Sequence record: MZ234026.1
DNA length: 45,144 nt
Reading direction: 5' to 3' (one strand)
Source of the DNA: Escherichia phage vB_EcoS-CHD2B1
Part shown: positions 340-45,144 of the stretch, in pieces
How the letters are laid out: every line of letters begins with the position of its first letter
Numbering within the stretch: the stretch's first letter is position 1
Position numbers and translations under genes: made by a program
The notes under the pieces: generated by a model
Database searches by the model: none
Told to the model about the DNA's origin: nothing
The model's input: the letters and a program-made list of their open reading frames with translations, nothing else

Positions 340-513
340 TATGCAGTCTCAGACGAGGGGGGCCAACTGACCCCCGTCTAGTCTGAAAGACTGGGGTTTG
401 TCCCGCCTGTCCCGCTCCCCTGCAAGCCGCGTAATCCGGGGCGGGACGGGGGTGCTGTCCCGCTTTGTCCCGCCCCCTGGCTGTCCCGCTTTTTGTCCCG
501 CTTACTTTATGCA
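340..513. repeat. Iteron element copy A: two adjacent hairpins followed by about five GTCCCGC direct repeats and GCGGGAC inverted copies, flanked by TTATGCA motifs
   Basis: About 170 bp near-identical to 28536..28704; non-coding by position (between primase stop at 608 and gene start at 137). Confidence 0.8.
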
Positions 514-607
514 ATAAAACTGCATAACTATTCACTATATTTACACTACACGGCAACCAATGCGACCAGCTAAAAACACTCAATTTGGCAACCAATGCGC
601 GCAAAAT

Positions 608-2882: not shown

Positions 2883-3212
2883 TTACTTAGAAGTTTTATT
2901 ATTGCGTACCCAGGAGCGCACGGTGCTCTGATTAATTCCAGTTAACTCGGCAATCATCGCCCAGGACTTGCCCTCGTCGCGCAAACGGATAACCTGCTTT
3001 TTGTATTCTTCCATTTCTTCATTGTGTTTTTGCAGCTTGCTTGCTGCCGTACCGTTGAGTAATTCCAGCTTGGCGCGCAATTCTTTTTCGACACTGCGCA
3101 GGCGTTCGATTTCAAATAACGCCGCACCAACGGCATCGGTATAAGCCCAGGACCGGCTTGTCTCACCACTAACGGTCTTAGTTAACATTTCGATTGCGTC
3201 GTTGATATGCAT
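2883..3212 (-). CDS. Small DNA-binding protein with C-terminal helix-turn-helix (candidate transcriptional regulator)
   Basis: 109-aa ORF, coiled-coil middle, C-terminal WAMIAELTGINQSTVRSWV HTH-like segment; RBS AGGAGA 6 nt upstream of ATG. Confidence 0.55.
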   Translation of the reverse strand: MHINDAIEMLTKTVSGETSRSWAYTDAVGAALFEIERLRSVEKELRAKLELLNGTAASKLQKHNEEMEEYKKQVIRLRDEGKSWAMIAELTGINQSTVRSWVRNNKTSK

Positions 3213-3614: not shown

Positions 3615-4133
3615 ATGTTTGAGCAAATCGTAAACCTGATCACACGCGGCGTAGTAGCACTGGAAACCATCGCTAAGCATTATGAAACTGCTGGCGCTGC
3701 CGTTGGTAAACAGGAAGCGAAGAAAGCCCCGGCTAAGGGCAAGGCAAAAGAAGAAGTAGTCGAAGATGACGACGCTGAAGACGAAGCACCGGCTAAGACC
3801 AAAAAAGCGCCAGCAAAGGGCATGGCTAAGAAAGAAGCCGTAGAAGAAGACGACGCGGACGACGAAGAAGAAGCCCCGGCGAAATCTAAGAAAGCACCGG
3901 CGAAAGGTAAAGGCAAGAAAGATGCCGATCCGCTGAAAGAGATGCGCGACGAAATCAAGCAGTATGCCGCTATTATTGCTGGCGGTGATGACGACGACGC
4001 AAACGACGAATTTGACGACCTGCTGGAAGAATTCGAAATTAAATCCGTTGCCAAGCTGGAAGATGACGACGTGGAAGAGTTCCACCAGGAATTAAAAGCA
4101 ATCGTCGAAACTTATTTCGAATTAGAAGATTAA
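3615..4133 (+). CDS. Highly acidic repeat protein (alternating Lys-rich KKAPAKGK and Asp/Glu-rich blocks); candidate DNA-mimic or host-takeover protein
   Basis: ATG at 3615 with GGAG RBS; in-frame upstream ATG at 3435 has no RBS; repeats EDEAPAKTKKAPAKG / EEEAPAKSKKAPAKG; first gene after the early promoter. Confidence 0.6.
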   Translation: MFEQIVNLITRGVVALETIAKHYETAGAAVGKQEAKKAPAKGKAKEEVVEDDDAEDEAPAKTKKAPAKGMAKKEAVEEDDADDEEEAPAKSKKAPAKGKGKKDADPLKEMRDEIKQYAAIIAGGDDDDANDEFDDLLEEFEIKSVAKLEDDDVEEFHQELKAIVETYFELED

Positions 4134-6413: not shown

Positions 6414-6438
6414 CCGCTTAGGCGCAACCAAGTAAATT
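6410..6438 (+). promoter_or_regulatory. Sigma70-like promoter TTGACC-N17-TAAATT with GCAACCAA motif in spacer
   Basis: -35 at 6410..6415, -10 at 6433..6438; upstream of the SSB gene. Confidence 0.45.
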
Positions 6439-6502
6439 AGCAACCAAGCCGAACGGGGTGGCTCACAATAACCCCGATACATGCGAAATGAGGAATTGAG
6501 AA

Positions 6503-7294
6503 ATGGCTAAAGTCAACCTGAAAAATGTACGAGTATGCTTCCTGAAAATTTGGGAACGTGATACCCCTAAACAGGATGGACAAAAACCGGCATACCGTGC
6601 CGTGATTCTTCTTGATAAAGAAGATCCGCAGGTGGACAAAGTGGAAGCGGCAGCGCGCGCAGTGCTTACCGACAAGCTGAAATCCGAGAAGAACGCCGAT
6701 AAGTGGATGGACCGCCACTACGCCCAGGATTCTAAGGAATGCGCAGTTCGTGACGGCGACGAGCGCGACGAAGTAACCGAAGAATTCGAAGGCATGTTGT
6801 ACATCAACGCCAAATCGTTCAAACAGCCTAACATTCAAACGTCACTGGGCGAGAAGCAGACCGAACAGGGTCTGACCATCGACGGCGACGAGATCGAAGG
6901 CCAGGAAATCTATTCCGGTTGTTATTGCAACGTGTCCCTGGATATTTGGGCGTGGAACAACACCAACGGTAAAGGTCTCGGTGCTGGCTTGATGGGTCTT
7001 CGCTTCCGTGACGATGGTGACTCCTTCGGTGGCGGCGGGTCTTCTTGTTCCGATGACGACCTGGGCGACGATGACGAAGATGAAGCACCGCGCAAGGCTA
7101 AGAAGTCCAAACGTCGTGATGACGATGACGAAGATGATAAGCCGCGCAAGTCCAAGAAATCCAAGCGTCGTGATGACGATGACGAAGACGAGGAAGACGA
7201 AAAACCTCGCAAGCGTCGCAAGTCCCGCGATGACGAAGATGAGGACGACGACGACGACGAAGACGAAGCACCACGTAAACGTCGCCGCCGTTAA
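6503..7294 (+). CDS. Single-stranded DNA-binding protein (DUF2815-type phage SSB) with a ~90-aa low-complexity acidic/basic repeat C-terminal tail
   Basis: N-terminus MAKVNLKNVRVCFLKIWE typical of this SSB family; C-terminus repeats DDDEDEAPRKAKKSKRRDDDDEDD... Confidence 0.7.
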   Translation: MAKVNLKNVRVCFLKIWERDTPKQDGQKPAYRAVILLDKEDPQVDKVEAAARAVLTDKLKSEKNADKWMDRHYAQDSKECAVRDGDERDEVTEEFEGMLYINAKSFKQPNIQTSLGEKQTEQGLTIDGDEIEGQEIYSGCYCNVSLDIWAWNNTNGKGLGAGLMGLRFRDDGDSFGGGGSSCSDDDLGDDDEDEAPRKAKKSKRRDDDDEDDKPRKSKKSKRRDDDDEDEEDEKPRKRRKSRDDEDEDDDDDEDEAPRKRRRR

Positions 7295-13106: not shown

Positions 13107-13111
13107 ATTGG

Positions 13112-13140
13112 TTGCGTAATTAGATTGGTTGCATTATCTT
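13112..13140 (+). promoter_or_regulatory. Putative promoter TTGCGT-N17-TATCTT overlapping two TTGGTTGC motifs
   Basis: Motifs at 13108..13115 and 13125..13132 upstream of gene at 13187. Confidence 0.3.
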
Positions 13141-13186
13141 AAGGGTGTCCGGTTGGACGCCCTTTTTAATACCTGGAGACATTACG

Positions 13187-14571: not shown

Positions 14572-15038
14572 AACTACTGATTTGTGATCTGGATGGCGTT
14601 ATTAATGGTTCAAGTGATGCGCGTGCTGACCTGGTGCCCGGCATAAAAACCAAATCAACCTTTTGGGCGAAGTGGCACAAAGCACACGTACGCGAAGACC
14701 TTAACATGGATATGCTGCCGCTGCTGCGCATGTACAAAGAGCAAGGCTTCGAGATAGCGTATCTGACTAACCGGCAGCGCGAATGCTGGGACACGACCGC
14801 CAAGCAATTGGAAGTATTCCCGACGGGCCGGTTGTTCATGCGCCACATGCTGGACGACACCCCTCCGCCAGAGTTTAAGGCGTGCGCTGTGTTCAAAATG
14901 GTGTGCTATGCGGACGTGTCGGAACTGGTCATCATTGAAGACTGCCCGAAGAATATCGAAGCCATCCGTCGGGCGTGCAGCGATCTGGTCCCTAAAATTT
15001 ATTCTATAAACGTAGCAAAATTTACTTGCAACCAATAG
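14568..15038 (+). CDS. HAD-superfamily phosphatase (possible nucleotidase)
   Basis: N-terminal ICDLDGVI (DxDG motif I of HAD hydrolases). Confidence 0.55.
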   Translation: MKLLICDLDGVINGSSDARADLVPGIKTKSTFWAKWHKAHVREDLNMDMLPLLRMYKEQGFEIAYLTNRQRECWDTTAKQLEVFPTGRLFMRHMLDDTPPPEFKACAVFKMVCYADVSELVIIEDCPKNIEAIRRACSDLVPKIYSINVAKFTCNQ

Positions 15039-15055
15039 GTTGGTTGCACTATAGT
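15026..15055 (+). promoter_or_regulatory. Sigma70-like promoter TTGCAA-N18-TATAGT containing palindromic operator-like site GCAACCAA-tagg-TTGGTTGC
   Basis: Perfect inverted repeat of the recurrent motif between -35 and -10. Confidence 0.5.
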
Positions 15056-15663: not shown

Positions 15664-16239
15664 ATGTACGGCGAATACGAAATAACCGGTAAACAATTCC
15701 ACATCGCGGCAATGTTAGCAAGCGTCGAGTTTGACCAGTGGCGCTTAAAGTCTGACGCGTGCAAGCAAAGCCGTCTGGTCGGTGTGCTGGGCGAGATGTT
15801 TGCGGGCATGTACCTTGAAGGGCAGGCGGGCGGGCGTAGTTGTATCCCGCAAGGCTTGCTCATGCGTACCGGCCTGTTTAGCGCCAACACCATCGACCGC
15901 GGCGATATTATCATGGTCGGTAAACGCAAGGTTAAGTCTGGCCCCGACTTCCGTGAGCACATGATTGATGCCGTCTGGACCTACGAGGTTAAAGCCACCA
16001 GCGGCATCCGTCGCGGACTGGTAGAAGCCCGTTGCGCTCGCGAATATCTAACCCGTCGAGTTGCCGGTGTTATCCTGGTGGGCGTATCGTTCGGACAACA
16101 TAGCGCGCACGGTGTAATTGAGGATATTGCGGAGCCATACGTGATTGTGAACGATTGGCCCCTGGTGGAAGTAGAAGGCAAGGAATATTATGAGAGTCCG
16201 CTGGTGCGGCGAAAAATGGATTGGGAAAACTCAAACTAA
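15664..16239 (+). CDS. Hypothetical protein (191 aa)
   Basis: ATG with GAGGA RBS; last gene of plus-strand block. Confidence 0.5.
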   Translation: MYGEYEITGKQFHIAAMLASVEFDQWRLKSDACKQSRLVGVLGEMFAGMYLEGQAGGRSCIPQGLLMRTGLFSANTIDRGDIIMVGKRKVKSGPDFREHMIDAVWTYEVKATSGIRRGLVEARCAREYLTRRVAGVILVGVSFGQHSAHGVIEDIAEPYVIVNDWPLVEVEGKEYYESPLVRRKMDWENSN

Positions 16240-16264
16240 AAAAGGGGCCGTATGGCCCCTTCTA
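16238..16264. terminator. Bidirectional hairpin terminator AAAAAAGGGGCC gtat GGCCCCTTCT between convergent genes
   Basis: 6-bp G/C stem flanked by A-run and T-rich tract; convergent gene ends at 16239 and 16266. Confidence 0.65.
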
Positions 16265-16265
16265 A

Positions 16266-18308
16266 TTATGCTTTGGTCAGTGCCGCTACGGCAGCTTTCA
16301 ATTCCTCCAGTTCTTTCTGCATATCTTCCACTTTACGCCCCATAAAGACCATCGCGCACGCCATATCTGTTAACATGACGTTGCTGTCAAGTGCCAGCGT
16401 GTCGTCGTAGTAGTCGCCGTCTTCGGCTTTGAATCCTTCAGTCCCTACGAGGTCCGGGTTTTTAAGTGCGCCGGGGATAATCTTCACGTATTGCGGATCG
16501 ATTTTCACCAGGTCCTGCGCGATAAGGCCATAGCGCTGGATTTCCGACCCTTTATACTTAAACATTGTGGGAAGCCACTGCATCACTCGATCGTAGCTTT
16601 CTTTCCCTTCCGTGTACTTAATATCGTGCTTCAGGTCACGGTCGGACGTAGGCGCTTTGGAAAATGTGTACGCGCCGAATGTACCGCTGACCTGGATATC
16701 GCAACTGTTAACGACGAACTCGAAGTTGGTCCAGTTTTCGCCATCCCCTCGGCAGCGCAATGCCGCACGGGGCCAGTTCGCCGTGCCCTGAGAGATAAGC
16801 CCCCACGTGGCGCGGATAGGGTATCCGCCGGTTGATTGGGACCGCCAGGAGATTGCAGGAACCCAGCCGCCGTCGTTATTTCCGACGTCAGATAGCCACA
16901 CACCGCTGTCCCCGTAGTTGTTAGGCTGGTCCCAGCCGGTCTGGAAACCTTCGGCGATAAGTCGTCTGGCGGACATCTTTCCATCGGGTCTAAACCGGTA
17001 GCGCCATTCCGCCACGCCAGCATTCAGGACGTAGACCTCATAGGCTTCAAGCCCCGTCCCTCCCTGACGAATCGGCCCGGTAAACACCGCGCTATTTTGC
17101 CAGTTATACCGCGTGAATCCGGTATAGTCGTTCGGCTTTGGTGGGTTAAGCGACAGTAGCTGCACGGTGTTACTATCGACGCCGTTCAGAAGTAATTCGC
17201 CACCCTGCGCAGACGACAGGCGCTTGAATCCGTTAAAGTTACCTTCGACGTCGAGTTGATAGTAATGTGACCCCGAAGGCGTGATTACGCCGATCGTGTG
17301 CTTTCCGGTCCCTAGTTGTGTTTCTGCGTAGCTTTGCGTCGTTACCACGTCCTCACCGTTGCTATTCTTTAGCTTAGACTGGAACATTCCGCCCTGCGCC
17401 GATACGGTGTCGGGGGCTGATTTAACAGCGAGAGCACCCTTAAAAATAGGCTCGTTACCCTCCCCCAGTTCGAGGTTGGTGCGCGACGTCTGCACATCGG
17501 CAACGCCTGCAAGGTTGCCGGATTTAGTTAGCAGATTATCCGCGTTTACGCTTTGCGCCCATTCTTCGGCCTGATCGCGAAATCCCTGCGCGGCAGTGCT
17601 GGCGGCTTGCGCGTCAGTCTTCGCAGTATTGGCTTCATCGCGAATAACGCCAGTATCCGTCTTAATCTGGTCGGTCTGGTCCTTGATAGACTGCGTATCA
17701 GTCTTAATCTGGTCGGTCTGCGTCTTGATCGTATTGGTGGCGTCGTGGATTGCCTGCGTGTCAGTCTTGATTTGGTCGGTCTGCGTCTTGATGGCATTGG
17801 CATCGTTCTTGAAGCCTTCGGCCTCATTGCGCGACACCAGCGCGGCGGCTTCCGATGCGGCGGCTTGTTGTTGCAGGTCGCGCATTTCGACGGGGTCTAC
17901 TTCCTTCAACAAGGATGACAGGTAGCCCCATGACATTCCCTGCATAACTTGCCCGTTTGGCAGCGTTACCGTGACTTCTTCAGCGTCGCCGAAGATTGCA
18001 CGCCAGTTGTTTTCATCCGCGATCATCAAGCGTAGTGCTTTCTGCGCCTGGACGGTTACGCCCATCGTTGCAAGGGACATGGTATCGCGCGCCACGCTAT
18101 CCCATGCGAGGCCGGTTGCCGTTGGGCCATCGAATGGCAGCGCCAGTGTAAGCGCGGTGTCGCTCTCAATGGATGCAATAGCAATAGTGTAAGGGACTTG
18201 CCCTACTACCAGCGACAGGAAGTCGCCCGCCTTCAGCGCGGTAAGCGTTGTGCCGTCTCCAGTCACCGCGGTGCTGTTATTCGTTACGGATAGTGTACCC
18301 GCTGCCAT
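16266..18308 (-). CDS. Tail fiber protein with internal tandem repeats and C-terminal intramolecular chaperone (peptidase S74-like) domain
   Basis: ATG at 18308 with GAGGA RBS (ORF track starts at upstream TTG 18335); repeats TQTDQIKTDTQ; C-terminal SDRDLKHDI...YGLIAQDL. Confidence 0.7.
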   Translation of the reverse strand: MAAGTLSVTNNSTAVTGDGTTLTALKAGDFLSLVVGQVPYTIAIASIESDTALTLALPFDGPTATGLAWDSVARDTMSLATMGVTVQAQKALRLMIADENNWRAIFGDAEEVTVTLPNGQVMQGMSWGYLSSLLKEVDPVEMRDLQQQAAASEAAALVSRNEAEGFKNDANAIKTQTDQIKTDTQAIHDATNTIKTQTDQIKTDTQSIKDQTDQIKTDTGVIRDEANTAKTDAQAASTAAQGFRDQAEEWAQSVNADNLLTKSGNLAGVADVQTSRTNLELGEGNEPIFKGALAVKSAPDTVSAQGGMFQSKLKNSNGEDVVTTQSYAETQLGTGKHTIGVITPSGSHYYQLDVEGNFNGFKRLSSAQGGELLLNGVDSNTVQLLSLNPPKPNDYTGFTRYNWQNSAVFTGPIRQGGTGLEAYEVYVLNAGVAEWRYRFRPDGKMSARRLIAEGFQTGWDQPNNYGDSGVWLSDVGNNDGGWVPAISWRSQSTGGYPIRATWGLISQGTANWPRAALRCRGDGENWTNFEFVVNSCDIQVSGTFGAYTFSKAPTSDRDLKHDIKYTEGKESYDRVMQWLPTMFKYKGSEIQRYGLIAQDLVKIDPQYVKIIPGALKNPDLVGTEGFKAEDGDYYDDTLALDSNVMLTDMACAMVFMGRKVEDMQKELEELKAAVAALTKA
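17570..17830. repeat. Tandem ~33-bp coding repeats inside tail fiber gene
   Basis: Repeated gtcttaatctggtcggtctg / gtcttgatttggtcggtctgcgtcttgat units encoding KTDTQ-type repeats. Confidence 0.6.
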
Positions 18309-18612: not shown

Positions 18613-19578
18613 ATGGGTGCTGGAATACTTATCGACTACAACGACGGTAGACCTGTCATGGAGATAACCGCGGGCCTTCGCGCTCCGTCGTTCTGCACTA
18701 CCTTTAATCAGCGCTGTCAGTCTGACAAGACGCTGACCATTAACACACCGCTGACACCGGGGTCCGAACTGGTCGTTGCCCTAACTAATCCGGTAGAAGT
18801 GATGGAAGTATTCGACCAGACCCTGGTCTTGCCAGACCCGTTTTATGTGACGTCGATACAACGTAACGGGGATGGCGGAATCACCTTGCGCGGTGAGGAT
18901 GCCTATAACGCATACAGCGGGCTTCCAACATGGGGCGGGGTGATTATGGAAGTGCTGCCGGTTGGGTCACGCAATGCGGGCTTACTGGTAGCTAACTCAA
19001 CGGACTTCACCGCAATATCCAACGTCGCACGGCTAATGACCTGCCGATATGCGCAGCGCGTGCATGTAAACGGAAGTATGCCGCTACCCGTCGGCGGTGT
19101 CCCGTTCGCTCGCTGGGACGACGGCAACGTATCGGTTGGCTTCGATGGCGGAAGTATTATCGTCCGTAATGCGTCCTATGGCGGGATTGACGACGTAGGC
19201 GCTGCCGTCGACATGGACCTGGTTATATTCAACAATACGCCGCCATCACCGGGGACCGGTATCACCATGACTAACAACCAGGGGCAGGTCACGTTCTCGA
19301 CGGTAAACAAGCCGTTTGTCTACGACCGCACGATTAATATCGGTGGCGGCGACCAGCACATCGGTAATAGTCTGATCCAGCTTTCATATACCGGTGCGCT
19401 CATTGAGAACAACAGCGGCTATAACCATGTGCGCATGAACGGGATACGAATGGCGGGTAATAATGTGCGCATCGCCAAAAACCGCGTTATTGGCAACTAC
19501 TCACGGCAGCAATTCCAAATGCCGGGCAAAAATATTGCCGTACCCACCCCGCTACTAGTCATCCCTAACATCTATTAA
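18613..19578 (+). CDS. Hypothetical 321-aa protein co-transcribed with the lipoprotein (candidate receptor-binding or tail-associated protein)
   Basis: ATG at 18613 right after the lipoprotein stop; Gly/Asn/Thr-rich; function not recognisable from sequence. Confidence 0.5.
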   Translation: MGAGILIDYNDGRPVMEITAGLRAPSFCTTFNQRCQSDKTLTINTPLTPGSELVVALTNPVEVMEVFDQTLVLPDPFYVTSIQRNGDGGITLRGEDAYNAYSGLPTWGGVIMEVLPVGSRNAGLLVANSTDFTAISNVARLMTCRYAQRVHVNGSMPLPVGGVPFARWDDGNVSVGFDGGSIIVRNASYGGIDDVGAAVDMDLVIFNNTPPSPGTGITMTNNQGQVTFSTVNKPFVYDRTINIGGGDQHIGNSLIQLSYTGALIENNSGYNHVRMNGIRMAGNNVRIAKNRVIGNYSRQQFQMPGKNIAVPTPLLVIPNIY

Positions 19579-19603
19579 AAAAGGGGCCGGATGGCCCCTT
19601 CTC
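19576..19603. terminator. Bidirectional hairpin terminator AAAAAAGGGGCC ggat GGCCCCTTCT (near-identical to 16238..16264)
   Basis: Between convergent gene ends at 19578 and 19606. Confidence 0.65.
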
Positions 19604-19605
19604 AT

Positions 19606-22600
19606 TTACCACGTCCCAACTTTCACCCTGCCCCCGCCAGGTAATGGCACGTTAACGCCCGTTGCGTCGATCTGTACCGACCCGCCGGAGAATCCAAAGT
19701 TACCCGTAGTTGCGAACAGATTGCCGCGTACCGTAACGTTGTTGAACTCCGCCCCGCCATCCTTCGCGATACGCCAGCCGCTGTTACCCGGATTCCAGTT
19801 ATTGGATTGCAGCGTGTCCGTGATCTGCGCGAAGTTAATGGACGCGTTCTTGATGCGTGCTGTGTCGATGTACACCTGACCGCCGTCAACGATAAACGCG
19901 GAGGTGAGCGTACCATTCGACGGGTGCATGATGTAGAACTGGTCCGCCTTGAACGCGATGCGTGATTTAACCGCGCCACCTTCCGCCACGACGGAAAGCT
20001 GCATACCGGCATCATAGTAAGTCCCGTTATACGTCACGCCAGCCTTAAGGCTGTATGTGGCGCTACCGCCAGCATGGTTAAACGAGGACGTCATCTTCTG
20101 CTCGATAGCTGCGGACTGCTGACCGAACTGTGCCGCGACCTGGGTCTTATACTCCGCCAGCGCGCCCGCTACGTCTGCCGTTGCCGTTTGTACCTGCTGG
20201 ATGGCAGCTTCCTGCTCCCCGAACTTAGCGGCAACAGTTTGTTGGTACTGGGCGAACGCCTGTTCATGCGTGCTTTGCGCGGTCTGCAACGTGTGGATTG
20301 ACGCTTCGGCGTCGTCAAGGCGCGTGCCGATTAACGTTTCCAGTTGCGCTACGGCTTCGTGAGCGTCCGCCGCCACGTTATACGCCACCGTAATTTCTGC
20401 ATAAATCCCTTTATACTCGGCGCGGGCGTTGAATAACTGCTGGGCGTCCGTAAGCATTGACTCATAGATGCCTTGCGGAATGGTGTCGATTGCTTCCTGG
20501 AAGTGTTTACCGTCCTCGGAAGTCAAGAACTCGTCATCAAGCCCCTGCATGTACTCGTCAACTTTGTCACTCACCTGCCCGTCGAACGGATCGGACCAGT
20601 CTGACAGGTTGCCGATTTTATCCGCTACACGTGCGCGCAACTGCTGGTAGATCCCGAACTCCAGCGACGTTTGCGCATAGTCCGACCCCGGATATGGGAC
20701 GTTGGTTAGGAATTTCCATTCCGTTTCGCCCAGCTTGCGTACTTCAAGCTCTGTATACGAAATATCCGTTGCGGCGTTGTTGTGATTCCACTTCCACAAA
20801 ATTTGATGAAGGCCCGAAATCGCGTTGGTGATGATAGGCGCGTTAAGCCCACCAAGACGACCTTCCACCGGCGTGATGGCGGATGACACCCACGGGGATG
20901 AAATCTCGCCCATACCGATAGCACGGACGCGTGCCTGGTAGTTACCCGAAAACACGTTCGGGATGTGCGCGCCGTTCGACGCCGTGCGGGGAATGTTCAC
21001 CCAGTCGTTTCCCCACTGGATTTCCAGATTCTGCAAGCTGGTACGTCGCCACTGGATTTCGTACACAACGGCATCCTTCACCGGCGGAAAAACAATATCC
21101 ACGTTAGTGATTAGCTGGCCTTGTGATGAAATCTGCGACGGGGTGATGGTAACGGATTCTGGCCCCTTCATTACGCCGTCCGGCACTTGCGTGAAGATGC
21201 CCGGATCAAGACGCGCGCCATTATCAACGGCATCATATTTGCTATCGTTATATTCAATCCCGCGCACCGAGAAAGTGCTGGTAGCGTCGTCATATTCCAG
21301 GTCGGTGATGCGGAACTTCTGCAACTGGATATCATCGCCATCAACGCAAAACGGCTGATCAGGAATCGGGTCGGCGTCCAGTGCGGTTTTTAGCGTGACC
21401 TGGTTGCCGTTGACGCTGGCAATCTCGCGAGTCTCCACATTACCGCTATCGGTGCGCACCAGGAATTTATCGCCAGGGCGGAACGTGATTTCGCTGTCCG
21501 TGTTCAGCACGGTGCGCGTGCCCGGATCTGACAACAGACGTCCGCCGCGTGTCTCGAAGCCGCCAGAAATGTTAGTATCTGCGATCGCGACTACGCTCCC
21601 CGGAATAAAGAATAACCCCTCCATGCCAACCTTAAAGCTAACTTGCTGATCAAGCTGGTTGGAGATTAGCGCCCAGTGTCCGCGGCGTTGCGCTTCAGAT
21701 TCACGCGTACAGCCGATCGCCGTAATATCAAGGCGGTTAATCTTATGGCGGCGCACCAGTTCGACACGCTGGCCAGTTGCGATGGCGTCCTCGTAATGGT
21801 TTTTCGGGTTGCCGTAGGCTACCGAGAACGTGGAATACCGAGTTTTCTGGCTTCCCGATGCGTAGTCGAATCGACCATCAATAACCGAGGCGTTGGTGAT
21901 AGTATGCGATACCGCTGCGACCGGCTGGTCACTGACAATATTCAGCATCTGGTTGCCCCACCAGGTCATCCCAGCAAAGATAGCCGCTAAATCCTTCAGC
22001 ACGGTCCAGGCGTCGGTCTGCGATTGAATGTACATATCATTCTTAAATCGGATTTCCTGACCGCCGTTGCCGTCACTGACCATCTGGTCGCAGCGCTGCG
22101 CAATCTGGTAGAGTGCGTAACGGTTTAGCATTTGTGGCTTGACACGACGACCGAGGCCGAAGCGCTCAGTAATACAAATATCGTACCAGTGCCACGCAGG
22201 ATTATCCGTCCAGGCGCGTTTAAATGTACCGTCCCAGTTACCAGAATAGGTATGATTCACGGGGTCATAGTTGTTCGGGACCAGCACTTTGCGGCCTTTG
22301 CACTTGATTGACACGCGCGGGATGTTCTGGAAAGCCTTAGCGTCGAACTCCACGAACAACAGCGCGGTTAGCGGGTAACGCAGGCGGGCGTCGATAATCT
22401 CAGTAATGGATTGTACCTGGATATCGTTGACCACTTTCGCCGATGTGGAGTCTGCCGTTGTGCGGATCACCTCCACGCGCCAGCCGGTGTTAACGTTCGA
22501 CGGTAGTTCGATGCGGTGGTCGCGCTCATACAGCGACATTGTTTTACCAACGGCAGCGAATGTAAACTCGCGCGGATCAGCATTATCGGTATACACAACG

Positions 22601-25784: not shown

Positions 25785-25820
25785 AAAAAAGCCCCCACGT
25801 TGTATGTGAGGGCCATTTTA

Positions 25821-28466
25821 TCATCGTTTGTAAAGTACTCCACCCGGTTTCGTCGCTTTCACGATCTCAGCCTTGACCGACTCGGTGATTTGCTTTCCGA
25901 ACGCCTGCGCGGTGCGTGGGTCCGGTCCGCTCACACTGGTGTCCGTTTTACCGGTCCCCATGTTCACGTTGGTCGTTACAATCATCCCACCCCCACCAGC
26001 ACCGGCAGCGGCAACGCCCAGTTTCCCGTCCGGCCCGCGCTTCAGTGGCATGATGGCCTCGGGTCCGGCCTCACCCATCAATCCAGCGCCCTTAGCGAAC
26101 GCCTGAACGCCATAACTGAAAAAGGTAGGCTGGCTTACCACTTGCCCGGAATAGGCCGCTAGATTGCCTCCTGCGTACGCTCCGCCGTCTGCGTTCTTAG
26201 TGAGGCCCGAGAAGATAGCGCCGAACAATCCGTTTTTGCCGCCGTCACCGCCGAAAGCGCTAACGATGGATTTGAACGCCTGCGAGGTAGCCAGCTTGAT
26301 TAATTCGCTCAGGATGGACTTAACCATATCCTTCGCGCTCAGCTTGCCCGTCTCGAAAAACTTGTTCATCGTGTCCTGCATAGCGCCGAACGTGAATTTT
26401 GTGAGTGACGTCATCTGCGTGTAGCCGTTACCCATTTCATCCACGCTATCCTTAAGCCCGCGGCCGAAGCCATCCCACAACGAGGCGTTAGCACCGGTCT
26501 GTGCTTCCTGCACTTCGCGCAGCTTAGACACCGCGTTGTCAATATCAGTATCGTTAGCGCCGACACGCTGAAGGCGGTCAATTAGCTGTAATTCTTCGCG
26601 CAGGTTAGCCGCTTCGCGAGTGGAAAGCGCATAGCCCGCAGCGGTGGCCCTTAGCTCAGCGTTCTGGTTCTTGATGAATGCCTCGACCTGGGCGTGTGCC
26701 TTGATCTGCTTCTCTTTCGCGTCCAGCAATTTGGCTTCTTCGACGATCTGCTCGCGTACCGCTTTAACCGCCTCGAACTCCGCCATTTGCTGCTTTTCTG
26801 CTGCCGTTAGAGTGCGCTCCTTGCTTGCGGCGACCATCTGCTCATTATCCGCCACCAGCTTATTCAACGCGGCCTGTGCGCGCTGCGTGCGGGTCTGCGT
26901 TGTTGCATTGGCCTCGATCTGCTTGCCGGACTCCTTAAGCTGTGCCAGTTCGCTCCGTGCGACCTCCAGCATTTTGACACCGGCATCCACGCGAATAGCC
27001 GCCGCCTTCTTCGGTGCGGGGTCTTTGTAGCGCTCGTTGACCTGCTTCACCGCCTCGGCTAGTTCTTTCTCGTTAATCACACCGCGCTTATTCAGCAAAT
27101 TGAGGCGGGCGATCTCGTCGGCGCGCTTCTGCGCGTTGGTGGCAAATTCCTTCTCGAACGCGGCGCGGTCGCGGGCGGTGCGGTTGGCCTCCTCGTTCGC
27201 CTTCGCTGATTTGTCCGCGGCGCTGGCGTTGTCGCGCTCAGCACGGTTGCGCAGGGTGAGTGACGCTACGACCTTCTCCTGGGCGACCAGTTCGCTATAA
27301 AGCATGTTAATTCGTGCTTTCTGCGCCTCGGTCATTACCCCACCGGCAGCGTTTACCGCTTTCATCTCGGCATAGTAAGCCGTTGTCATGCGCTGCAAGG
27401 ACTCACGCGCTTTCATCTCGGACTCATTCGAGGACTGCGCGCGGCCCACATCCAGGATGGCATCCCACATAGATTTAGCTGCCGATGTGACGACGTTCAT
27501 CGATCGCTCAAGCGTACCCATGTTGGACTTGATCTCGTTGGTCATGCTGGTGAACGACGCCGCGGCTGTTTTGTTAGCCAACGCCACCGCTTCAGTTTCG
27601 CGACCCGTCGTAACCAGTGACTGCACCTGCTGGATCTGCGCCTCGGTAACGACGTGATACTTGTCTGCCAGTGCGCGCAAGCCGCCCACCGGGTCGTTGG
27701 ACAATTTGGAGATGGACTCCACCACGTCAGCGATCGGCTGATTAGACACCTTCGCGAAGTCGTTCACCACTTTCGCCAGCGCGCCAAAGTCAGCACCGGC
27801 TTTCACACCTGCCGCCGCCAGCGCCTGAATTGTGTCACGCGTCTTGCTGAATGATCCGCCCATGCGTTCGGCGTTCTCCGACAGCACCAGGATCTGGTTA
27901 GCGGTGAGGCCAGAGATATTACCGGATAGCGCCAGCGTCTTATTCAGCGCCGCTACCTGGTTTTCGGCACGGGACGTAATCGCCACGCCTACGCCTAACG
28001 TCGCCGTTACCGCAGCAAGGCCGATCCCTACCGGACCGAGAAAGCCAGCAACATAACGCAGCGTATTACCCAGCCCACCGAATGCCCCGGTTAACTGCGG
28101 TAACTGCTGAATCATGACGCGGTGCACCGGCATACCCATCTCTAGCGTGACCGCAATATCCTGTAACTGAAATGCGGCGTTACGTGAGGCAAAGCCCAGG
28201 TTTTTAGTCGACATGCCTAAGCGGTTGGCAAGTCGCTCCTGCTTCGTCATGCCATCTGCGGCGCGCTGCGATTCAGTTGCCAGCTTCCCCATTCCGCCCG
28301 CGGCGTCACCCGTCACCTTTTTCGTGTTGCCGAGTGTGTCGTTTAATTTCTTAACCTTGTTTTCGGTGTTCTCGGACTTCTGCGCGAATGAGTCCAGCAC
28401 CGTATTCGCCGTTCTGATTTGTGCAACATCCGCCTTTAGCGTGATGCCTGCTGCTTGATCTGCCAT
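25821..28466 (-). CDS. Tail tape measure protein
   Basis: 881 aa from ATG 28466 (AAGGGG RBS); long Ala/Gln-rich coiled-coil; position. Confidence 0.85.
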   Translation of the reverse strand: MADQAAGITLKADVAQIRTANTVLDSFAQKSENTENKVKKLNDTLGNTKKVTGDAAGGMGKLATESQRAADGMTKQERLANRLGMSTKNLGFASRNAAFQLQDIAVTLEMGMPVHRVMIQQLPQLTGAFGGLGNTLRYVAGFLGPVGIGLAAVTATLGVGVAITSRAENQVAALNKTLALSGNISGLTANQILVLSENAERMGGSFSKTRDTIQALAAAGVKAGADFGALAKVVNDFAKVSNQPIADVVESISKLSNDPVGGLRALADKYHVVTEAQIQQVQSLVTTGRETEAVALANKTAAASFTSMTNEIKSNMGTLERSMNVVTSAAKSMWDAILDVGRAQSSNESEMKARESLQRMTTAYYAEMKAVNAAGGVMTEAQKARINMLYSELVAQEKVVASLTLRNRAERDNASAADKSAKANEEANRTARDRAAFEKEFATNAQKRADEIARLNLLNKRGVINEKELAEAVKQVNERYKDPAPKKAAAIRVDAGVKMLEVARSELAQLKESGKQIEANATTQTRTQRAQAALNKLVADNEQMVAASKERTLTAAEKQQMAEFEAVKAVREQIVEEAKLLDAKEKQIKAHAQVEAFIKNQNAELRATAAGYALSTREAANLREELQLIDRLQRVGANDTDIDNAVSKLREVQEAQTGANASLWDGFGRGLKDSVDEMGNGYTQMTSLTKFTFGAMQDTMNKFFETGKLSAKDMVKSILSELIKLATSQAFKSIVSAFGGDGGKNGLFGAIFSGLTKNADGGAYAGGNLAAYSGQVVSQPTFFSYGVQAFAKGAGLMGEAGPEAIMPLKRGPDGKLGVAAAGAGGGGMIVTTNVNMGTGKTDTSVSGPDPRTAQAFGKQITESVKAEIVKATKPGGVLYKR

Positions 28467-28535
28467 TATGCAGTCCCCTTTTTTTATGCAGTTGCCGATT
28501 GACATTGTATCAGCGAATTTCAAACAAACCTTATT

Positions 28536-28850
28536 CAGTCTCAGACGAGGGGGGCCATTGACCCCCGTCTAGTCTGAAAGACTGGGAGTTGTCCCGCCTG
28601 TCCCGATCGGCTGAAACCCGCGGCAGCACTGACGGGGACGGGGTGCTGTCCCGCTTTGTCCCGCCCCATGTTTGTCCCGCTTTCTGTCCCGTTTGTTTTA
28701 TGCACGAAATCTGAATAGGTATGCACATTTAGGGGCTGGACGGATCGGGACGTCCCGCTCGTCCCGCTTTGAGTTTATGCAATGAAAGTGAGTAAGTATG
28801 CAGTTTTGCAAAACGGGACAAAGCGGGACGTCCCGTTTTGTCCCGCTTCA
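28536..28850. repeat. Iteron element copy B (extended): same hairpins and GTCCCGC repeats as copy A, plus extra CGGGACGTCCCG palindromes and TATGCACA motifs
   Basis: 28536..28704 aligns with 344..513; extra iterons 28740..28850; lies between the GT chaperone stop (28851) and tape measure start (28466). Confidence 0.8.
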
Positions 28851-29527
28851 TTATGCGGGGTTTTGTTGCGCCATTTCGTCAAGCGCGATTCGCTCCATTA
28901 GCTTTATATCTTTAAATGCACGTTGCTCGTTTTCGATGCCGTGCATCTTAAATAGCCATTCCAGCACGCCGTAGTCGATGCCGTATGCGCCACCGAATCC
29001 GGTGCGCCATTGCGTGGAGCAATCTGTGAAGACTGCGACTATCTTCGCGTTGTCGGGCCATAGCGCAACAGGTGGACAAACATCCTCGGGGGCCGCGCCC
29101 CATAAACTAGCGGCTAAATCTTCGGAGGGTGGCGGCGGGCCATAAAAGCGTCGCGCCGCCTCAATCAGTTTTTTTCACGCAATCCCATCAATTCGAGATA
29201 GTACGAGGTGTGGAACACGCCGAACGCGCGCGGGTAGTTGACCACCAGGCGGCGGACGTTCTCAGCGTTAAATTGGTCTGGCAGATTCCAGCCTTCAGCG
29301 ACGTGCATGATGGCCGCAACCATAACGTTAAAGCCGTCCGGGTCATTGTCGTCATATTCCGACAGCTTGCGCTCGGTGTCCTGCATGGTCTGCGAAAACT
29401 CGTCGATCGGGCGGTGGCGGACGGTAAAGGTCATCTTGCCCGGCTCGTTCTCACCAGGGCGCGGGATCTCAATCGGCAGCTTAAAGGTCGGCTTAGGGTC
29501 AAGTGTAAAGAGTGGTGCTTTAGCCAT
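28851..29527 (-). CDS. Tail assembly chaperone G/GT fusion made by programmed -1 ribosomal frameshift (slippery A AAA AAC at 29168..29174)
   Basis: -1 frame is open for ~105 codons from the slippery site to TAA at 28851..28853, checked codon by codon. Confidence 0.7.
29165..29527 (-). CDS. Tail assembly chaperone (lambda G-like), zero-frame product
   Basis: 120 aa; ATG 29527 with GGAGAA RBS; ends GLREKN-stop with slippery GAAAAAAAC. Confidence 0.75.
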   Translation of the reverse strand: MAKAPLFTLDPKPTFKLPIEIPRPGENEPGKMTFTVRHRPIDEFSQTMQDTERKLSEYDDNDPDGFNVMVAAIMHVAEGWNLPDQFNAENVRRLVVNYPRAFGVFHTSYYLELMGLREKN

Positions 29528-29541
29528 TGTAATATTCTCCA

Positions 29542-29568
29542 ATAAAAAAGGGGCCGTGCTGGCCCCAT
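29542..29568 (-). terminator. Hairpin terminator after major tail gene (GGGGCC ... GGCCCC plus T-run on minus strand)
   Basis: aaaaaaggggccgtgctggcccc; same hairpin family as 16238 and 19576. Confidence 0.55.
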
Positions 29569-34311: not shown

Positions 34312-34401
34312 GCTATCCCCCTGGGATTGTGGCAGAGCGGGCCACCCGCTCGACTTCACGCCTCTAATATTATCAGCGATAAAAATAATCGCAAAATTCG
34401 C

Positions 34402-34431
34402 TTGCAATTCAGGTATTGGTTGCACTATATT
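34402..34431 (+). promoter_or_regulatory. Sigma70-like promoter TTGCAA-N18-TATATT with two TTGGTTGCAC motifs
   Basis: Motifs at 34417..34426 and 34431..34440; upstream of plus-strand gene 34461. Confidence 0.5.
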
Positions 34432-34460
34432 GGTTGCACACCAACAATGAGGACACACAA

Positions 34461-40228: not shown

Positions 40229-40311
40229 GATATAAGCCCTTTTATGCATATGCGCCGACCATCGGCAACATAGGAGACGGCCCAGCCATCTAAGGGGGAT
40301 TATAACAGGCA

Positions 40312-41863: not shown

Positions 41864-41895
41864 TTGGTTGCAGTATGGCCCTTATGTTGGTTGCA
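41864..41895. promoter_or_regulatory. Pair of TTGGTTGCA motifs (spacing 23 bp)
   Basis: gattggttgcagtatggcccttatgttggttgcaag between terminator 41905..41932 and the small peptide gene. Confidence 0.4.
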
Positions 41896-44838: not shown

Positions 44839-45144
44839 TTATTTCGCAAGCTGGGCGAATAGTTCGCGCTGTGCTTTAATCCGGGCGACGTTTGTCACTG
44901 CCTTATCGCCAATACCGAAGCGATAGGCCAGGCGCTCACGGGAGAATGCCAGCGCGTATTCATGGATAGCCTTACGCAGCGGACCCAGGTCATCCATGCT
45001 GGCGTCCATATCGTCGAGCGCACTCATGATGTGTTGGTGTGCCCGTGCCGCAAACTGGCGCGCATAGTCTACGTTGCCGTTTGTGTTTTTTGCTTCGTCC
45101 AGCTTCGCTATGGCCCGTGAGTATTTCCAGATTAATGCTTTCAT
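44839..45144 (-). CDS. Hypothetical protein (101 aa); its start codon is the last 3 nt of the window and is duplicated at 135..137
   Basis: ORF with GAGGA RBS visible at 138..160 when the overlap is circularised. Confidence 0.5.
   Translation of the reverse strand: MKALIWKYSRAIAKLDEAKNTNGNVDYARQFAARAHQHIMSALDDMDASMDDLGPLRKAIHEYALAFSRERLAYRFGIGDKAVTNVARIKAQRELFAQLAK

Follow-up and report, generated by a model that had tools for sequence, protein, structure and literature searches.

Bacillus phage SPP1 carries two distant repeat clusters, oriL and oriR, together with an AT-rich unwinding element, and both clusters are bound by the initiator gp38 (PMC6316719). oriL lies inside the initiator gene 38, and oriR lies in an intergenic segment of the late region that also holds morons and breaks the order of the morphogenesis genes (PMC6316719). 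It was proposed that gp38 bound at oriR stalls the replication fork and triggers the switch from theta replication to concatemer synthesis (PMC6316719). Here we describe a comparable pair of elements in Escherichia phage vB_EcoS-CHD2B1 (sequence record MZ234026.1), whose 45,144-nt sequence was analyzed as a whole and is called the window below. One element, copy A, lies next to a helicase-primase gene; the other, copy B, is a non-coding block between the tail chaperone gene GT and the tape-measure gene. From their sequences we read copy A as the primary origin and copy B as a second origin or an initiator-binding roadblock, in the manner of oriL and oriR of SPP1, with copy B possibly serving as a terminator-promoter boundary as well. 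Because everything in this reading rests on comparative and structural inference, we favor it with moderate confidence.

Several other replicons combine repeats or hairpins with multifunctional initiators. The alpha protein of satellite phage P4 is a primase-helicase that recognizes the origin repeats via a C-terminal winged helix (PMC4234260). ORF904 of plasmid pRN1 joins an AEP prim-pol, a helicase and a C-terminal winged helix, and its stem-loop origin is located just downstream of its own gene; an origin of this type was also proposed for the Bordetella phages BIP-1, BPP-1 and BMP-1 (PMC4234260). The oriV of RSF1010 (IncQ) consists of iterons and ssi hairpins, with RepC as the iteron binder, RepA as the helicase and RepB′ as the primase that recognizes the stem-loops (PMC4234260).

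Copy B fills the intergenic gap of 384 nt (28467-28850) between the GT stop codon (TAA, 28851-28853, minus strand) and the tape-measure ATG. A preliminary description of the window had reported a non-coding block of ~315 bp at this place, and the interval that it gave, 28536-28850, is bounded exactly by the GT stop and the 3′ end of a stem-loop. The block is indeed non-coding and the true gap is 384 nt. The features of copy B and of the start of the tape-measure gene are as follows.

28467-28850, minus strand: copy B, the whole non-coding gap; no conserved open reading frame (ORF); in all ~158 Dhillonvirus records
28811-28848, minus strand: two direct and two inverted iterons (GCGGGACAAAACGGGAC/GTCCCGCTTTGTCCCG) arranged as an imperfect palindrome, directly downstream of the GT stop; 91% complementary
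28767-28810, minus strand: AT-rich segment 1, TGCATA...TGCATAA; 66% AT
28735-28766, minus strand: iteron trio, including the palindrome CGGGACGTCCCG (28746-28757)
28692-28734, minus strand: AT-rich segment 2, TGCATAC-N15-TGCATAA; 65% AT
28635-28691, minus strand: four direct GCGGGACA iterons, then one inverted; 12, 16, 10 and 13 nt from start to start
28591-28605, minus strand: proximal iteron pair CGGGACAGGCGGGAC with a 9-nt spacing, the same as in copy A
28536-28584, minus strand: three-tier stem-loop CAGTCTTTCAGACTAGACGGGGG-TCAATGG-CCCCCCTCGTCTGAGACTG, 49 nt; copy A has one too
28504-28512, minus strand: extended -10-like sequence TGATACAAT, 38 nt upstream of the tape-measure ATG
28491-28497, minus strand: CGGCAAC, an instance of the motif CGGCA[A/G]C, which lies 35-45 nt past the stem-loop in the A and B copies of all lineages
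28464-28480, minus strand: tape-measure ribosome-binding site AAGGGG (28475-28480) and ATG (28464-28466)

Of the 34 occurrences of the hexamer CGGGAC in the whole window, 13 fall in the gap and 7 in copy A; ~0.22 would be expected in 384 nt (Poisson P ~3e-19 for the gap and ~2e-11 for copy A). GGGAC cores number 14 in copy B and 7 in copy A, and their spacings of 9-16 nt follow the same pattern in both. The palindrome CGGGACGTCCCG is found at 28746-28757 and again at 28824-28835, and AT-rich segment 1 is flanked by 25-nt inverted arms at 28735-28759 and 28822-28846. AT-rich segment 2 corresponds to the (GT)GAATAGTTATGCA direct repeats that are conserved in the A-type modules considered below. 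The palindromes, the TATGCAC/TGCATA motifs, TGATACAAT and AAGGGG had all been pointed out previously and are present as described. Segment 2 (28692-28734) also holds two 8/9 matches to the DnaA box TTATNCACA, a weak lead. DnaA boxes were dropped as a defining feature: the window has no perfect TTATNCACA, and copy A lacks even the 8/9 matches that copy B has twice.

Copy A lies at a distance of 16.8 kb on the circular genome and has the following parts.

344-545, minus strand: copy A, starting ~60 nt past the helicase-primase stop codon
503-545, minus strand: AT-rich segment of copy A; 77% AT
400-499, minus strand: iterons of copy A, six direct and one inverted
344-393, minus strand: stem-loop of copy A

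Positions 358-535 and 28549-28726 align in direct orientation as a 178-nt core with 81% identity, in agreement with the earlier view of copy B as a partial copy of element A with extra palindromes. Iterons within the core are spaced by 12, 16, 10 and 14 nt in copy A and by 12, 16, 10 and 13 nt in copy B, and the two copies have the same order of iterons, inverted copy, spacer of ~34 nt and pair 9 nt apart, and end in the same 49-50-nt stem-loop. Extra in copy B are two further iteron groups with the palindrome CGGGACGTCCCG and a second AT-rich TGCATA segment. The AT content is 45% genome-wide, versus 65-66% in the segments of copy B and 77% in that of copy A.

Comparison by locus gave identities of 0.87 among A copies and 0.89 among B copies, and of 0.81 between A and B of the same genome versus 0.79 between A and B of different genomes. 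Since the copies cluster by locus and A resembles B of its own genome about as much as B of other genomes, the duplication is older than the genus and the motifs have been kept by selection; the same figures do not support ongoing gene conversion between A and B. Both loci were already marked in the record of Sodalis phage SO-1 (GQ502199 / NC_013600), as direct, inverted and palindromic repeats with mutual similarity. The 384-bp 'region A' of that record, which precedes the tape-measure gene, is our copy B, with 91.7% identity, and its 480-bp 'region B', which follows the helicase/primase gene, is our copy A. The searchable literature contained no analysis of or experiment on SO-1 regions A and B and none on Dhillonvirus or Guernseyvirinae origins.

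Related loci were fetched via an alignment of helicase-primase proteins, and the DNA 3′ of the stop codon was compared across lineages. An A-type module directly 3′ of the helicase-primase stop codon was found in many lineages, among them Dhillonvirus, Guernseyvirinae and several IMG/VR lineages. Its order is constant, running from two AT-rich direct repeats (GT)GAATAGTTATGCA through 2-4 direct iterons, 1-2 inverted iterons, a spacer and a further iteron pair to the three-tier stem-loop, CGGCA(A/G)C and a sigma-70-like promoter. The sequence of the (GT)GAATAGTTATGCA repeat is kept across lineages, whereas the iteron differs by lineage: it is GCGGGACA in Dhillonvirus, including the 83% and 68% relatives, and elsewhere CGGACAA, CCGACA, AGGGATAA, GGGGAGA (GRNsp27), GGGGATGA, TTGCGAGT or CGCCCCG (Eiauvirus). 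In shorter form, the lineage-specific iterons are GGGACA, CGGACA, CCGACA, GGGATA, GGGAGA, GGGATG, TTGCGAG and CGCCCCG. The three-tier architecture of the stem-loop recurs in 8 other lineages with compensatory changes in all tiers, the outer stems being CAGTC/GACTG, ATCATC/GATGAT, ATCCTC/GAGGAT, GGTCTCC/GGAGATT and CTTCGT/ACGAAG and the inner stems GGGGG/CCCCC, GGTGGTGG/CCCACCATCC and GGGGTG/CACCCC. This covariation was read from per-sequence folds, with no formal pair count, because a MAFFT alignment of the stem-loop across lineages was structurally inconsistent. Every stem-loop tested folds better than shuffled controls (z-scores of -2.7 to -4.1), and in several lineages the loop contains an inverted iteron. 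As judged from this distribution, the ancestral module is copy A, which goes with the helicase-primase gene.

That gene encodes the candidate iteron binder.

608-2872, minus strand: helicase-primase, 754 aa, with an AEP PrimPol, a Cys/His cluster, an AAA_25/RepA-like helicase, a winged helix and an acidic tail

AAA_25 is the sole part of the 754-aa protein recognized by Pfam. The model of the N-terminal domain (pLDDT 84) had the AEP domain of cyanophage S-2L PrimPol as its top PDB match (6zp9, E 2.4e-5), and the Cys/His cluster is possibly a zinc finger. The C-terminal model, with a helix-helix-helix-strand-strand order and a core pLDDT of 82-87, matched winged-helix DNA-binding domains only (MarR, MepR, ORC2-WH and histone H1; best E 7.7e-3) and places the winged helix at residues ~666-737 (coordinates 662-877). 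A sequence search for PDB relatives found none, and a protein search with the C-terminal 200 aa alone gave no matches, whereas the full-length query did. The protein ends in all lineages in the acidic tail DDDL(K/E)D, also written (A)TDDDL(K/A)D. These models predict that the 754-aa protein has the domains of a self-sufficient initiator.

The iteron type was compared with the identity of the protein on either side of residue 642. Pairs that are 96-99% identical over residues 1-642 and differ in their iterons share only 42-50% identity in the winged helix.

L074 vs L076, iterons different: identity 0.99 over residues 1-642, 0.50 in the winged helix
L072 vs L079, iterons different: identity 0.98 over residues 1-642, 0.43 in the winged helix
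Close same-iteron pairs: identity 0.97-0.99 over residues 1-642, 0.99-1.00 in the winged helix
L068 vs L080, iterons same: identity 0.78 over residues 1-642, 0.83 in the winged helix
All same-iteron pairs (n=16), mean: identity 0.82 over residues 1-642, 0.78 in the winged helix
All different-iteron pairs (n=120), mean: identity 0.60 over residues 1-642, 0.34 in the winged helix

These alignments indicate that the iteron type tracks the winged helix independently of the rest of the protein. The 109-aa helix-turn-helix (HTH) protein (2883-3212), encoded upstream of the helicase-primase gene and the one other DNA-binding candidate nearby, was disfavored as the iteron binder, with no detectable homologue in Eiauvirus or GRNsp27, both of which have the module; the Eiauvirus gap ORF is unrelated to it.

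In Edwardsiella phage eiAU-183 (Eiauvirus), both distant copies carry the phage's own iteron CGCCCCG. The Eiauvirus B copy has kept a stem-loop of the Dhillonvirus type (AGACGGGGGT...CCCCTCGTC) together with iterons of the Eiauvirus type, which argues that the iterons of B followed the resident initiator without linkage to its gene. In IMG/VR contig 3300045988_050407 (locus L143), whose helicase-primase is 68% identical to that of the window, B lies upstream of the tape-measure gene with iterons that match; in its stem, A:T is replaced by G:C through a compensatory change.

Selection on copy B was measured as mean pairwise identity among 13 distinct genomes, set against the third codon positions of the T and tape-measure genes. 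Identity was 0.874 in the gap, 0.921 in the iterons, 0.986 in the stem, 0.733 in the loop and 0.92 in the segment 3′ of the stem-loop, versus 0.78-0.84 at third codon positions; the pattern in these sequences is that of motif-specific purifying selection. Copy B is present in all ~158 Dhillonvirus records of the phage collection, with at least two matching places per complete genome. Gap length in Dhillonvirus ranges from 383 to 434 nt as iteron units are added or lost at the 5′ end, where the number of iterons in 28811-28848 varies among genomes through indels of 10-13 nt.

Copy B is limited to the Dhillonvirus/Eiauvirus clade and is ancestral to the genus Dhillonvirus, so the notion of a recently inserted element is not supported. 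Nor is that of a mobile or recombinogenic repeat: there are two fixed loci, the copies cluster by locus, and no match to copy B was found in 5,426 E. coli genomes and 72,556 plasmids. A mobile element of the MITE (miniature inverted-repeat transposable element) or insertion sequence type and DNA derived from the host were both rejected on the two fixed loci per genome and the missing host and plasmid matches, no search having been aimed at terminal inverted repeats or target duplications. An assembly artifact is contradicted by the two-copy arrangement in ~158 independent phage records.

A coding function fared no better. The tape-measure ORF cannot run past 28523, and the small ORFs of the gap either are missing or differ from genome to genome in frame, start and length, with indels of 1 nt and of 10-13 nt that are not multiples of three. 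No ORF is kept across relatives and the indels shift the frame, and translation of the gap as an extended T protein, as part of the tape-measure protein or as a small gene was therefore rejected. Two to five 'hypothetical proteins' are annotated within the gap in MZ234008, MZ234014, PQ850604 and others. These ORFs are not kept from one genome to the next and probably represent over-annotation.

Three functions had been offered for the element in the preliminary description: an internal regulated promoter, a second origin, and a mobile or recombinogenic repeat. The second origin appears best supported because of the module at the helicase-primase gene, the co-variation of iteron and winged helix and the matching iterons in both Eiauvirus copies. 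The window contains a phased cluster of direct repeats, an adjacent AT-rich segment and a predicted DNA-binding domain that co-varies with the repeats. Phased repeats, AT-rich segment, hairpin and co-encoded multifunctional initiator make up, as far as sequence can tell, the parts list of an iteron origin.

We propose that the C-terminal winged helix of the PrimPol-helicase would bind the GCGGGACA iterons at both copy A and copy B. Oligomerization on the phased iterons would open the adjacent AT-rich TGCATA segment, extrude the stem-loop, or both; the helicase would then load, after which the AEP primase would begin DNA synthesis. Copy B might fire as a second origin, or it might be a tightly bound initiator site that stalls forks arriving from A, and it would correspond to oriR of SPP1. 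B cuts through the GT/tape-measure operon, and for this reason its 5′ palindrome probably acts to attenuate read-through, and TGATACAAT would probably restart transcription of the tape-measure and distal tail genes. This attenuator and internal promoter role is plausible and is the weaker part of the model.

Several observations weigh against an origin function of copy B. No experimental report of binding, origin activity or transcription in any Dhillonvirus was found in the literature. GC skew, examined as an origin marker, follows the direction of transcription and singles out neither A nor B. Guernseyvirinae have one module only, which indicates that B is not required by the replication system as such. 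The predicted C-terminal fold is a generic winged-helix match: the P4 alpha origin-binding domain was outside the top 50 fold matches, and no specific likeness to that domain was found. The stem-loop and the palindromes also form in RNA (z-score of -6.9 for the whole gap), and a role at the RNA level fits the same covariation. Finally, the co-variation of winged helix and iterons at copy A could be mere linkage, since the winged-helix coding end and the iterons adjoin and would travel together in a cassette, in the way of lambdoid O/ori. Only the B copies appear, from their sequences, to argue beyond linkage: B is ~17 kb off, yet in Dhillonvirus, the 68% relative and Eiauvirus alike its iteron is the resident one. 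As a separate observation, Guernseyvirinae-like lineages have exchanged the winged-helix end and the downstream iteron module as a single cassette.

Two extensions of the origin model are more speculative. One, which we consider distinctly unlikely, is that B couples replication to morphogenesis, such that the bound helicase-primase stalls forks from A, triggers the concatemer switch and gates tail transcription. If this were true, the dosage of the tape-measure and distal tail proteins would be tied to the replication state via one element at the GT/tape-measure junction. The other possibility is that the three-tier stem-loop with its loop iteron is a new single-strand priming or loading signal for fusions of an AEP primase and a RepA-type helicase.

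Copy B could instead be purely a transcriptional boundary, with the palindrome as terminator or attenuator of the head/tail-tube transcript, TGATACAAT as promoter of the tape-measure and distal tail genes, the iterons as operators of a phage regulator that sets the timing or dose of tail-gene expression, and no part in replication. This is unlikely in our judgment, and it accounts for the two ends of the element, namely the 5′ hairpin and the 3′ 70 nt. As RNA, positions 28811-28848 form a 17-bp stem followed by UUUUG (-27.4 kcal/mol, z-score -5.2), which places a terminator-like hairpin right after the GT stop, and the palindrome is annotated as a putative terminator in phage vB_EcoS_WFI. A terminator scan called this hairpin on the plus strand only, and its U run is just UUUUG. 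Across 15 B copies, TGATACAAT, the 31-nt leader and the ribosome-binding site do not vary; however, TGATACAAT is not conserved in the 68% relative, a promoter scan found no site in 28000-29400, and the pattern TGNTANAAT occurs 4 times in the window versus 4.07 expected, with no enrichment. Reverse-strand genes lie between T and B in Eiauvirus and the 68% relative, so that the tape-measure gene there needs a promoter of its own, and A-type modules elsewhere precede strong sigma-70-like promoters. Two further extended -10 motifs in the window stand 30-40 nt before other minus-strand gene starts. What a boundary leaves unexplained is the co-variation of iteron and winged helix and the fixation of the module at the 3′ end of the helicase-primase gene, and the small HTH regulators are not conserved across the lineages that share the module. 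A boundary role is also compatible with an origin and does not exclude it.

The two further extended -10-like sites are TGATAAAAT and TGTTATAAT (25815-25823 and 40299-40307, minus strand), each ~30 nt before a minus-strand gene. The genes concerned are the one that follows the tape-measure gene and that of the small terminase region, and the placement resembles that of TGATACAAT in B.

That the conserved part of copy B acts as RNA, as a leader or processing site (RNase III site, mRNA stabilizer or put-like antitermination), we regard as improbable. The gap folds strongly (z-score -6.9, with -3.4 to -5.2 for the hairpins), the stem-loop at 28536-28584 reaching -28.4 kcal/mol (z-score -3.4), and the X1/X1′/X1″ layout permits alternative pairings of the kind seen in attenuators. 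The stem is kept by compensatory changes across lineages as the loop drifts, and the two copies would precede two long late operons. The same stems would form in single-stranded or cruciform DNA, however, so this covariation cannot tell the two nucleic acids apart; an RNA element would not be expected to have phased double-stranded iterons in both orientations, nor to show co-variation of these with a protein domain; and transcription of the stem-loop depends on unmapped promoters. An Rfam scan of copy B returned sub-threshold matches to miRNA hairpins only (19-25 bits versus gathering scores of 49-180), with no match above noise.

It is very improbable that copy B has no function and is left over from an illegitimate duplication of A into a permissive intergenic site, kept similar by occasional gene conversion. 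The gap does tolerate cargo, with reverse-strand ORFs in Eiauvirus and in contig 050407, varies between 383 and 434 nt in Dhillonvirus, and shares loop variants between the A and B copies of different genomes. A relic would nevertheless not be expected in all ~158 records with motif-specific constraint above that of synonymous sites, and the copies show no strong ongoing conversion, since they cluster by locus. Moreover, the iterons of A and B changed together between genera while the stem-loop of B stayed of the Dhillonvirus type.

A packaging signal (pac/cos) or other terminase-binding site is scarcely credible: records or contigs are linearized in or beside B (eiAU-183, MZ234029, OX460974 and IMG/VR contig 3300045988_009799), but assembly breaks are common at two-copy repeats, 11 kb lie between B and the terminase genes, the module is associated with the helicase-primase gene and not with the terminase genes, and the 5′ cos ATCTTAAGGG that PhageTerm placed in Dhillonvirus EE09 (PMC10673088) has its exact match at 13136-13145, 15 kb from B, as mapped from the EE09 sequence and not from reads of this phage. 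The start of MZ234029.1, the end of OX460974.1 and the ends of NC_023555 and of 3300045988_009799 fall within copy B or no more than ~100 nt from it, and one record linearized near B starts at the equivalent of the stem-loop loop. Linearization near B may be due to assemblies breaking at the A/B repeat, or the start points may be arbitrary.

The window represents the complete genome, assembled as a circle, of a Dhillonvirus from the HK578/SO-1/SSL-2009a group of siphophages that infect E. coli; around the copy B locus its sequence identity to vB_EcoS_WFI is 98.5%. Bases 1-127 are 100% identical to 45018-45144 over the 127 nt; this end duplication is a circular-assembly overlap and no biological terminal repeat. 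Minus-strand genes extend from ~3.2 kb leftwards, across the wrap-around, down to ~16.3 kb, in the order 109-aa HTH protein, helicase-primase, small genes, lysis, terminase, head, tail, G/GT, tape-measure and tail tip. The replication module comprises a DUF2800 nuclease, an Enc34-type single-stranded DNA-binding protein, PolA, a SNF2 helicase and the AEP/AAA_25 fusion. Runs of GAAGA/GACGA at 3744-4021 and 7046-7272 encode acidic (D/E-rich) stretches in two early plus-strand proteins, one of which is the Enc34-type protein. The features upstream of copy B are the following.

28851-29542, minus strand: tail chaperone genes, with G at 29165-29542 and the T frame at 28851-29168
29168-29174, minus strand: -1 slip site A_AAA_AAC

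The earlier assignment of G and GT was confirmed by Phage_TAC_4 in G, DUF1799 in the T frame (both from Pfam) and the slip site, and the tape-measure start matches the annotation of WFI and SO-1. Comparison of the junction across phages agreed with the view that the split is unusual: the gap is genus-wide, and the genes abut in all relatives examined outside the Dhillonvirus/Eiauvirus clade. These include the syntenic Salmonella phage GRNsp27 (Guernseyvirinae; helicase-primase 44% identical), in which the T frame reaches the tape-measure ATG, one T1-like Serratia phage and 15 IMG/VR relatives (G protein 28-41% identical). The gap exists in three groups only, Dhillonvirus, contig 3300045988_050407 and eiAU-183, and in the latter two it also carries reverse-strand genes. 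In eiAU-183 (L008 5152-5720) these are two reverse-strand ORFs of 117 aa (weak HTH_7) and 70 aa (weak, sub-threshold DUF7301), and at ~2856-3245 of L143 a small protein whose N-terminus resembles a signal peptide is encoded on the reverse strand. The gap between GT and the tape-measure gene is a hot spot for insertions.

A further motif, TTGGTTGC/GCAACCAA, occurs 19 times versus 1.9 expected, mostly paired in intergenic DNA. Its sites include 150-157, 181-188, 272-279, 553-560, 588-595, 6424-6447, 13108-13132, 15028-15047, 34416-34437 and 41864-41894, among others. It flanks copy A on both sides and fills both Eiauvirus gaps, and an inverted pair of it lies within the promoter-like sites 15015-15053 and 34391-34429 (TTGCAA-N18-TATA). 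It is probably the operator of some phage regulator, separate from the GGGAC iterons. The cos-like ATCTTAAGGG (13136-13145) directly follows the TTGGTTGC pair at 13108-13132, in the early region and far from the terminase genes. Two terminator-like hairpins, TAAAAAAGGGGCC-GNATGG-CCCCTTCT, at 16237-16267 and 19576-19606, are 94% identical and bracket the tail-fibre region.

Dhillonviruses are among the commonest E. coli siphophage isolates, with ~158 genomes that include members of the BASEL collection and therapy candidates, and their origin and transcription map have so far been undescribed. The origin model names cis sites (A and B), a candidate binder (the winged-helix tail) and a specificity code (iterons swapped with the winged helix), and it extends to Guernseyvirinae (Jersey-like Salmonella phages) and Eiauvirus. 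If it is true, this would be the second well-defined virulent siphophage, after SPP1, with two distant initiator-binding origins, one of them in a late operon, and it would help to judge whether fork stalling of the oriR type is a general route to concatemers. In addition, the 384-nt gap is a naturally tolerated insertion site for phage engineering, and the A/B repeat explains assembly breaks and spurious 'hypothetical protein' calls in the region.

Among known systems, P4 has a second distant repeat cluster, crr, that is also required in cis. The likeness to P4 ori/crr consists of a multifunctional primase-helicase with a C-terminal winged helix and of short repeats, whereas alpha combines a Toprim primase with a superfamily 3 (SF3) helicase in place of the AEP fold and AAA_25/RepA-like helicase found here, the iteron sequences are unrelated, and the likeness to the alpha origin-binding domain is only that of the generic winged-helix fold. 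pRN1 has the same domain combination, with the origin downstream of the gene and the gene following a small DNA-binding regulator gene; it differs in its SF3 helicase, in its iteron-less origin, which is present as a single copy, and in having no second site in a structural operon. RSF1010 resembles this phage in its iterons, AT-rich segment, hairpin priming signals and RepA-like AAA_25, but it is a one-origin plasmid that uses three separate proteins rather than one fusion.

SPP1 is likewise a virulent siphophage of ~44-45 kb with two clusters, of which one is located at the initiator gene and the other in the late region. Its late cluster also lies in a gap that collects morons, and the two clusters are separated by ~13 kb in SPP1 (PMC6316719) versus 16.8 kb here. 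In contrast to oriL, which is within gene 38, copy A is just downstream of the helicase-primase gene; oriR is among head genes, whereas B splits GT from the tape-measure gene; and a three-tier stem-loop is present in the modules here. SPP1 uses gp38 with the loader gp39 and the DnaB-type helicase gp40, whereas here there is one unrelated polypeptide with AEP-PrimPol, RepA-like helicase and winged-helix parts. Because the replication module is different, with no gp38-type protein, loader or DnaB, the analogy with SPP1 is one of function and not of family membership. Copy B is real, ancient and constrained, was noted in one GenBank record, and matches in kind the known dual-origin and iteron systems.

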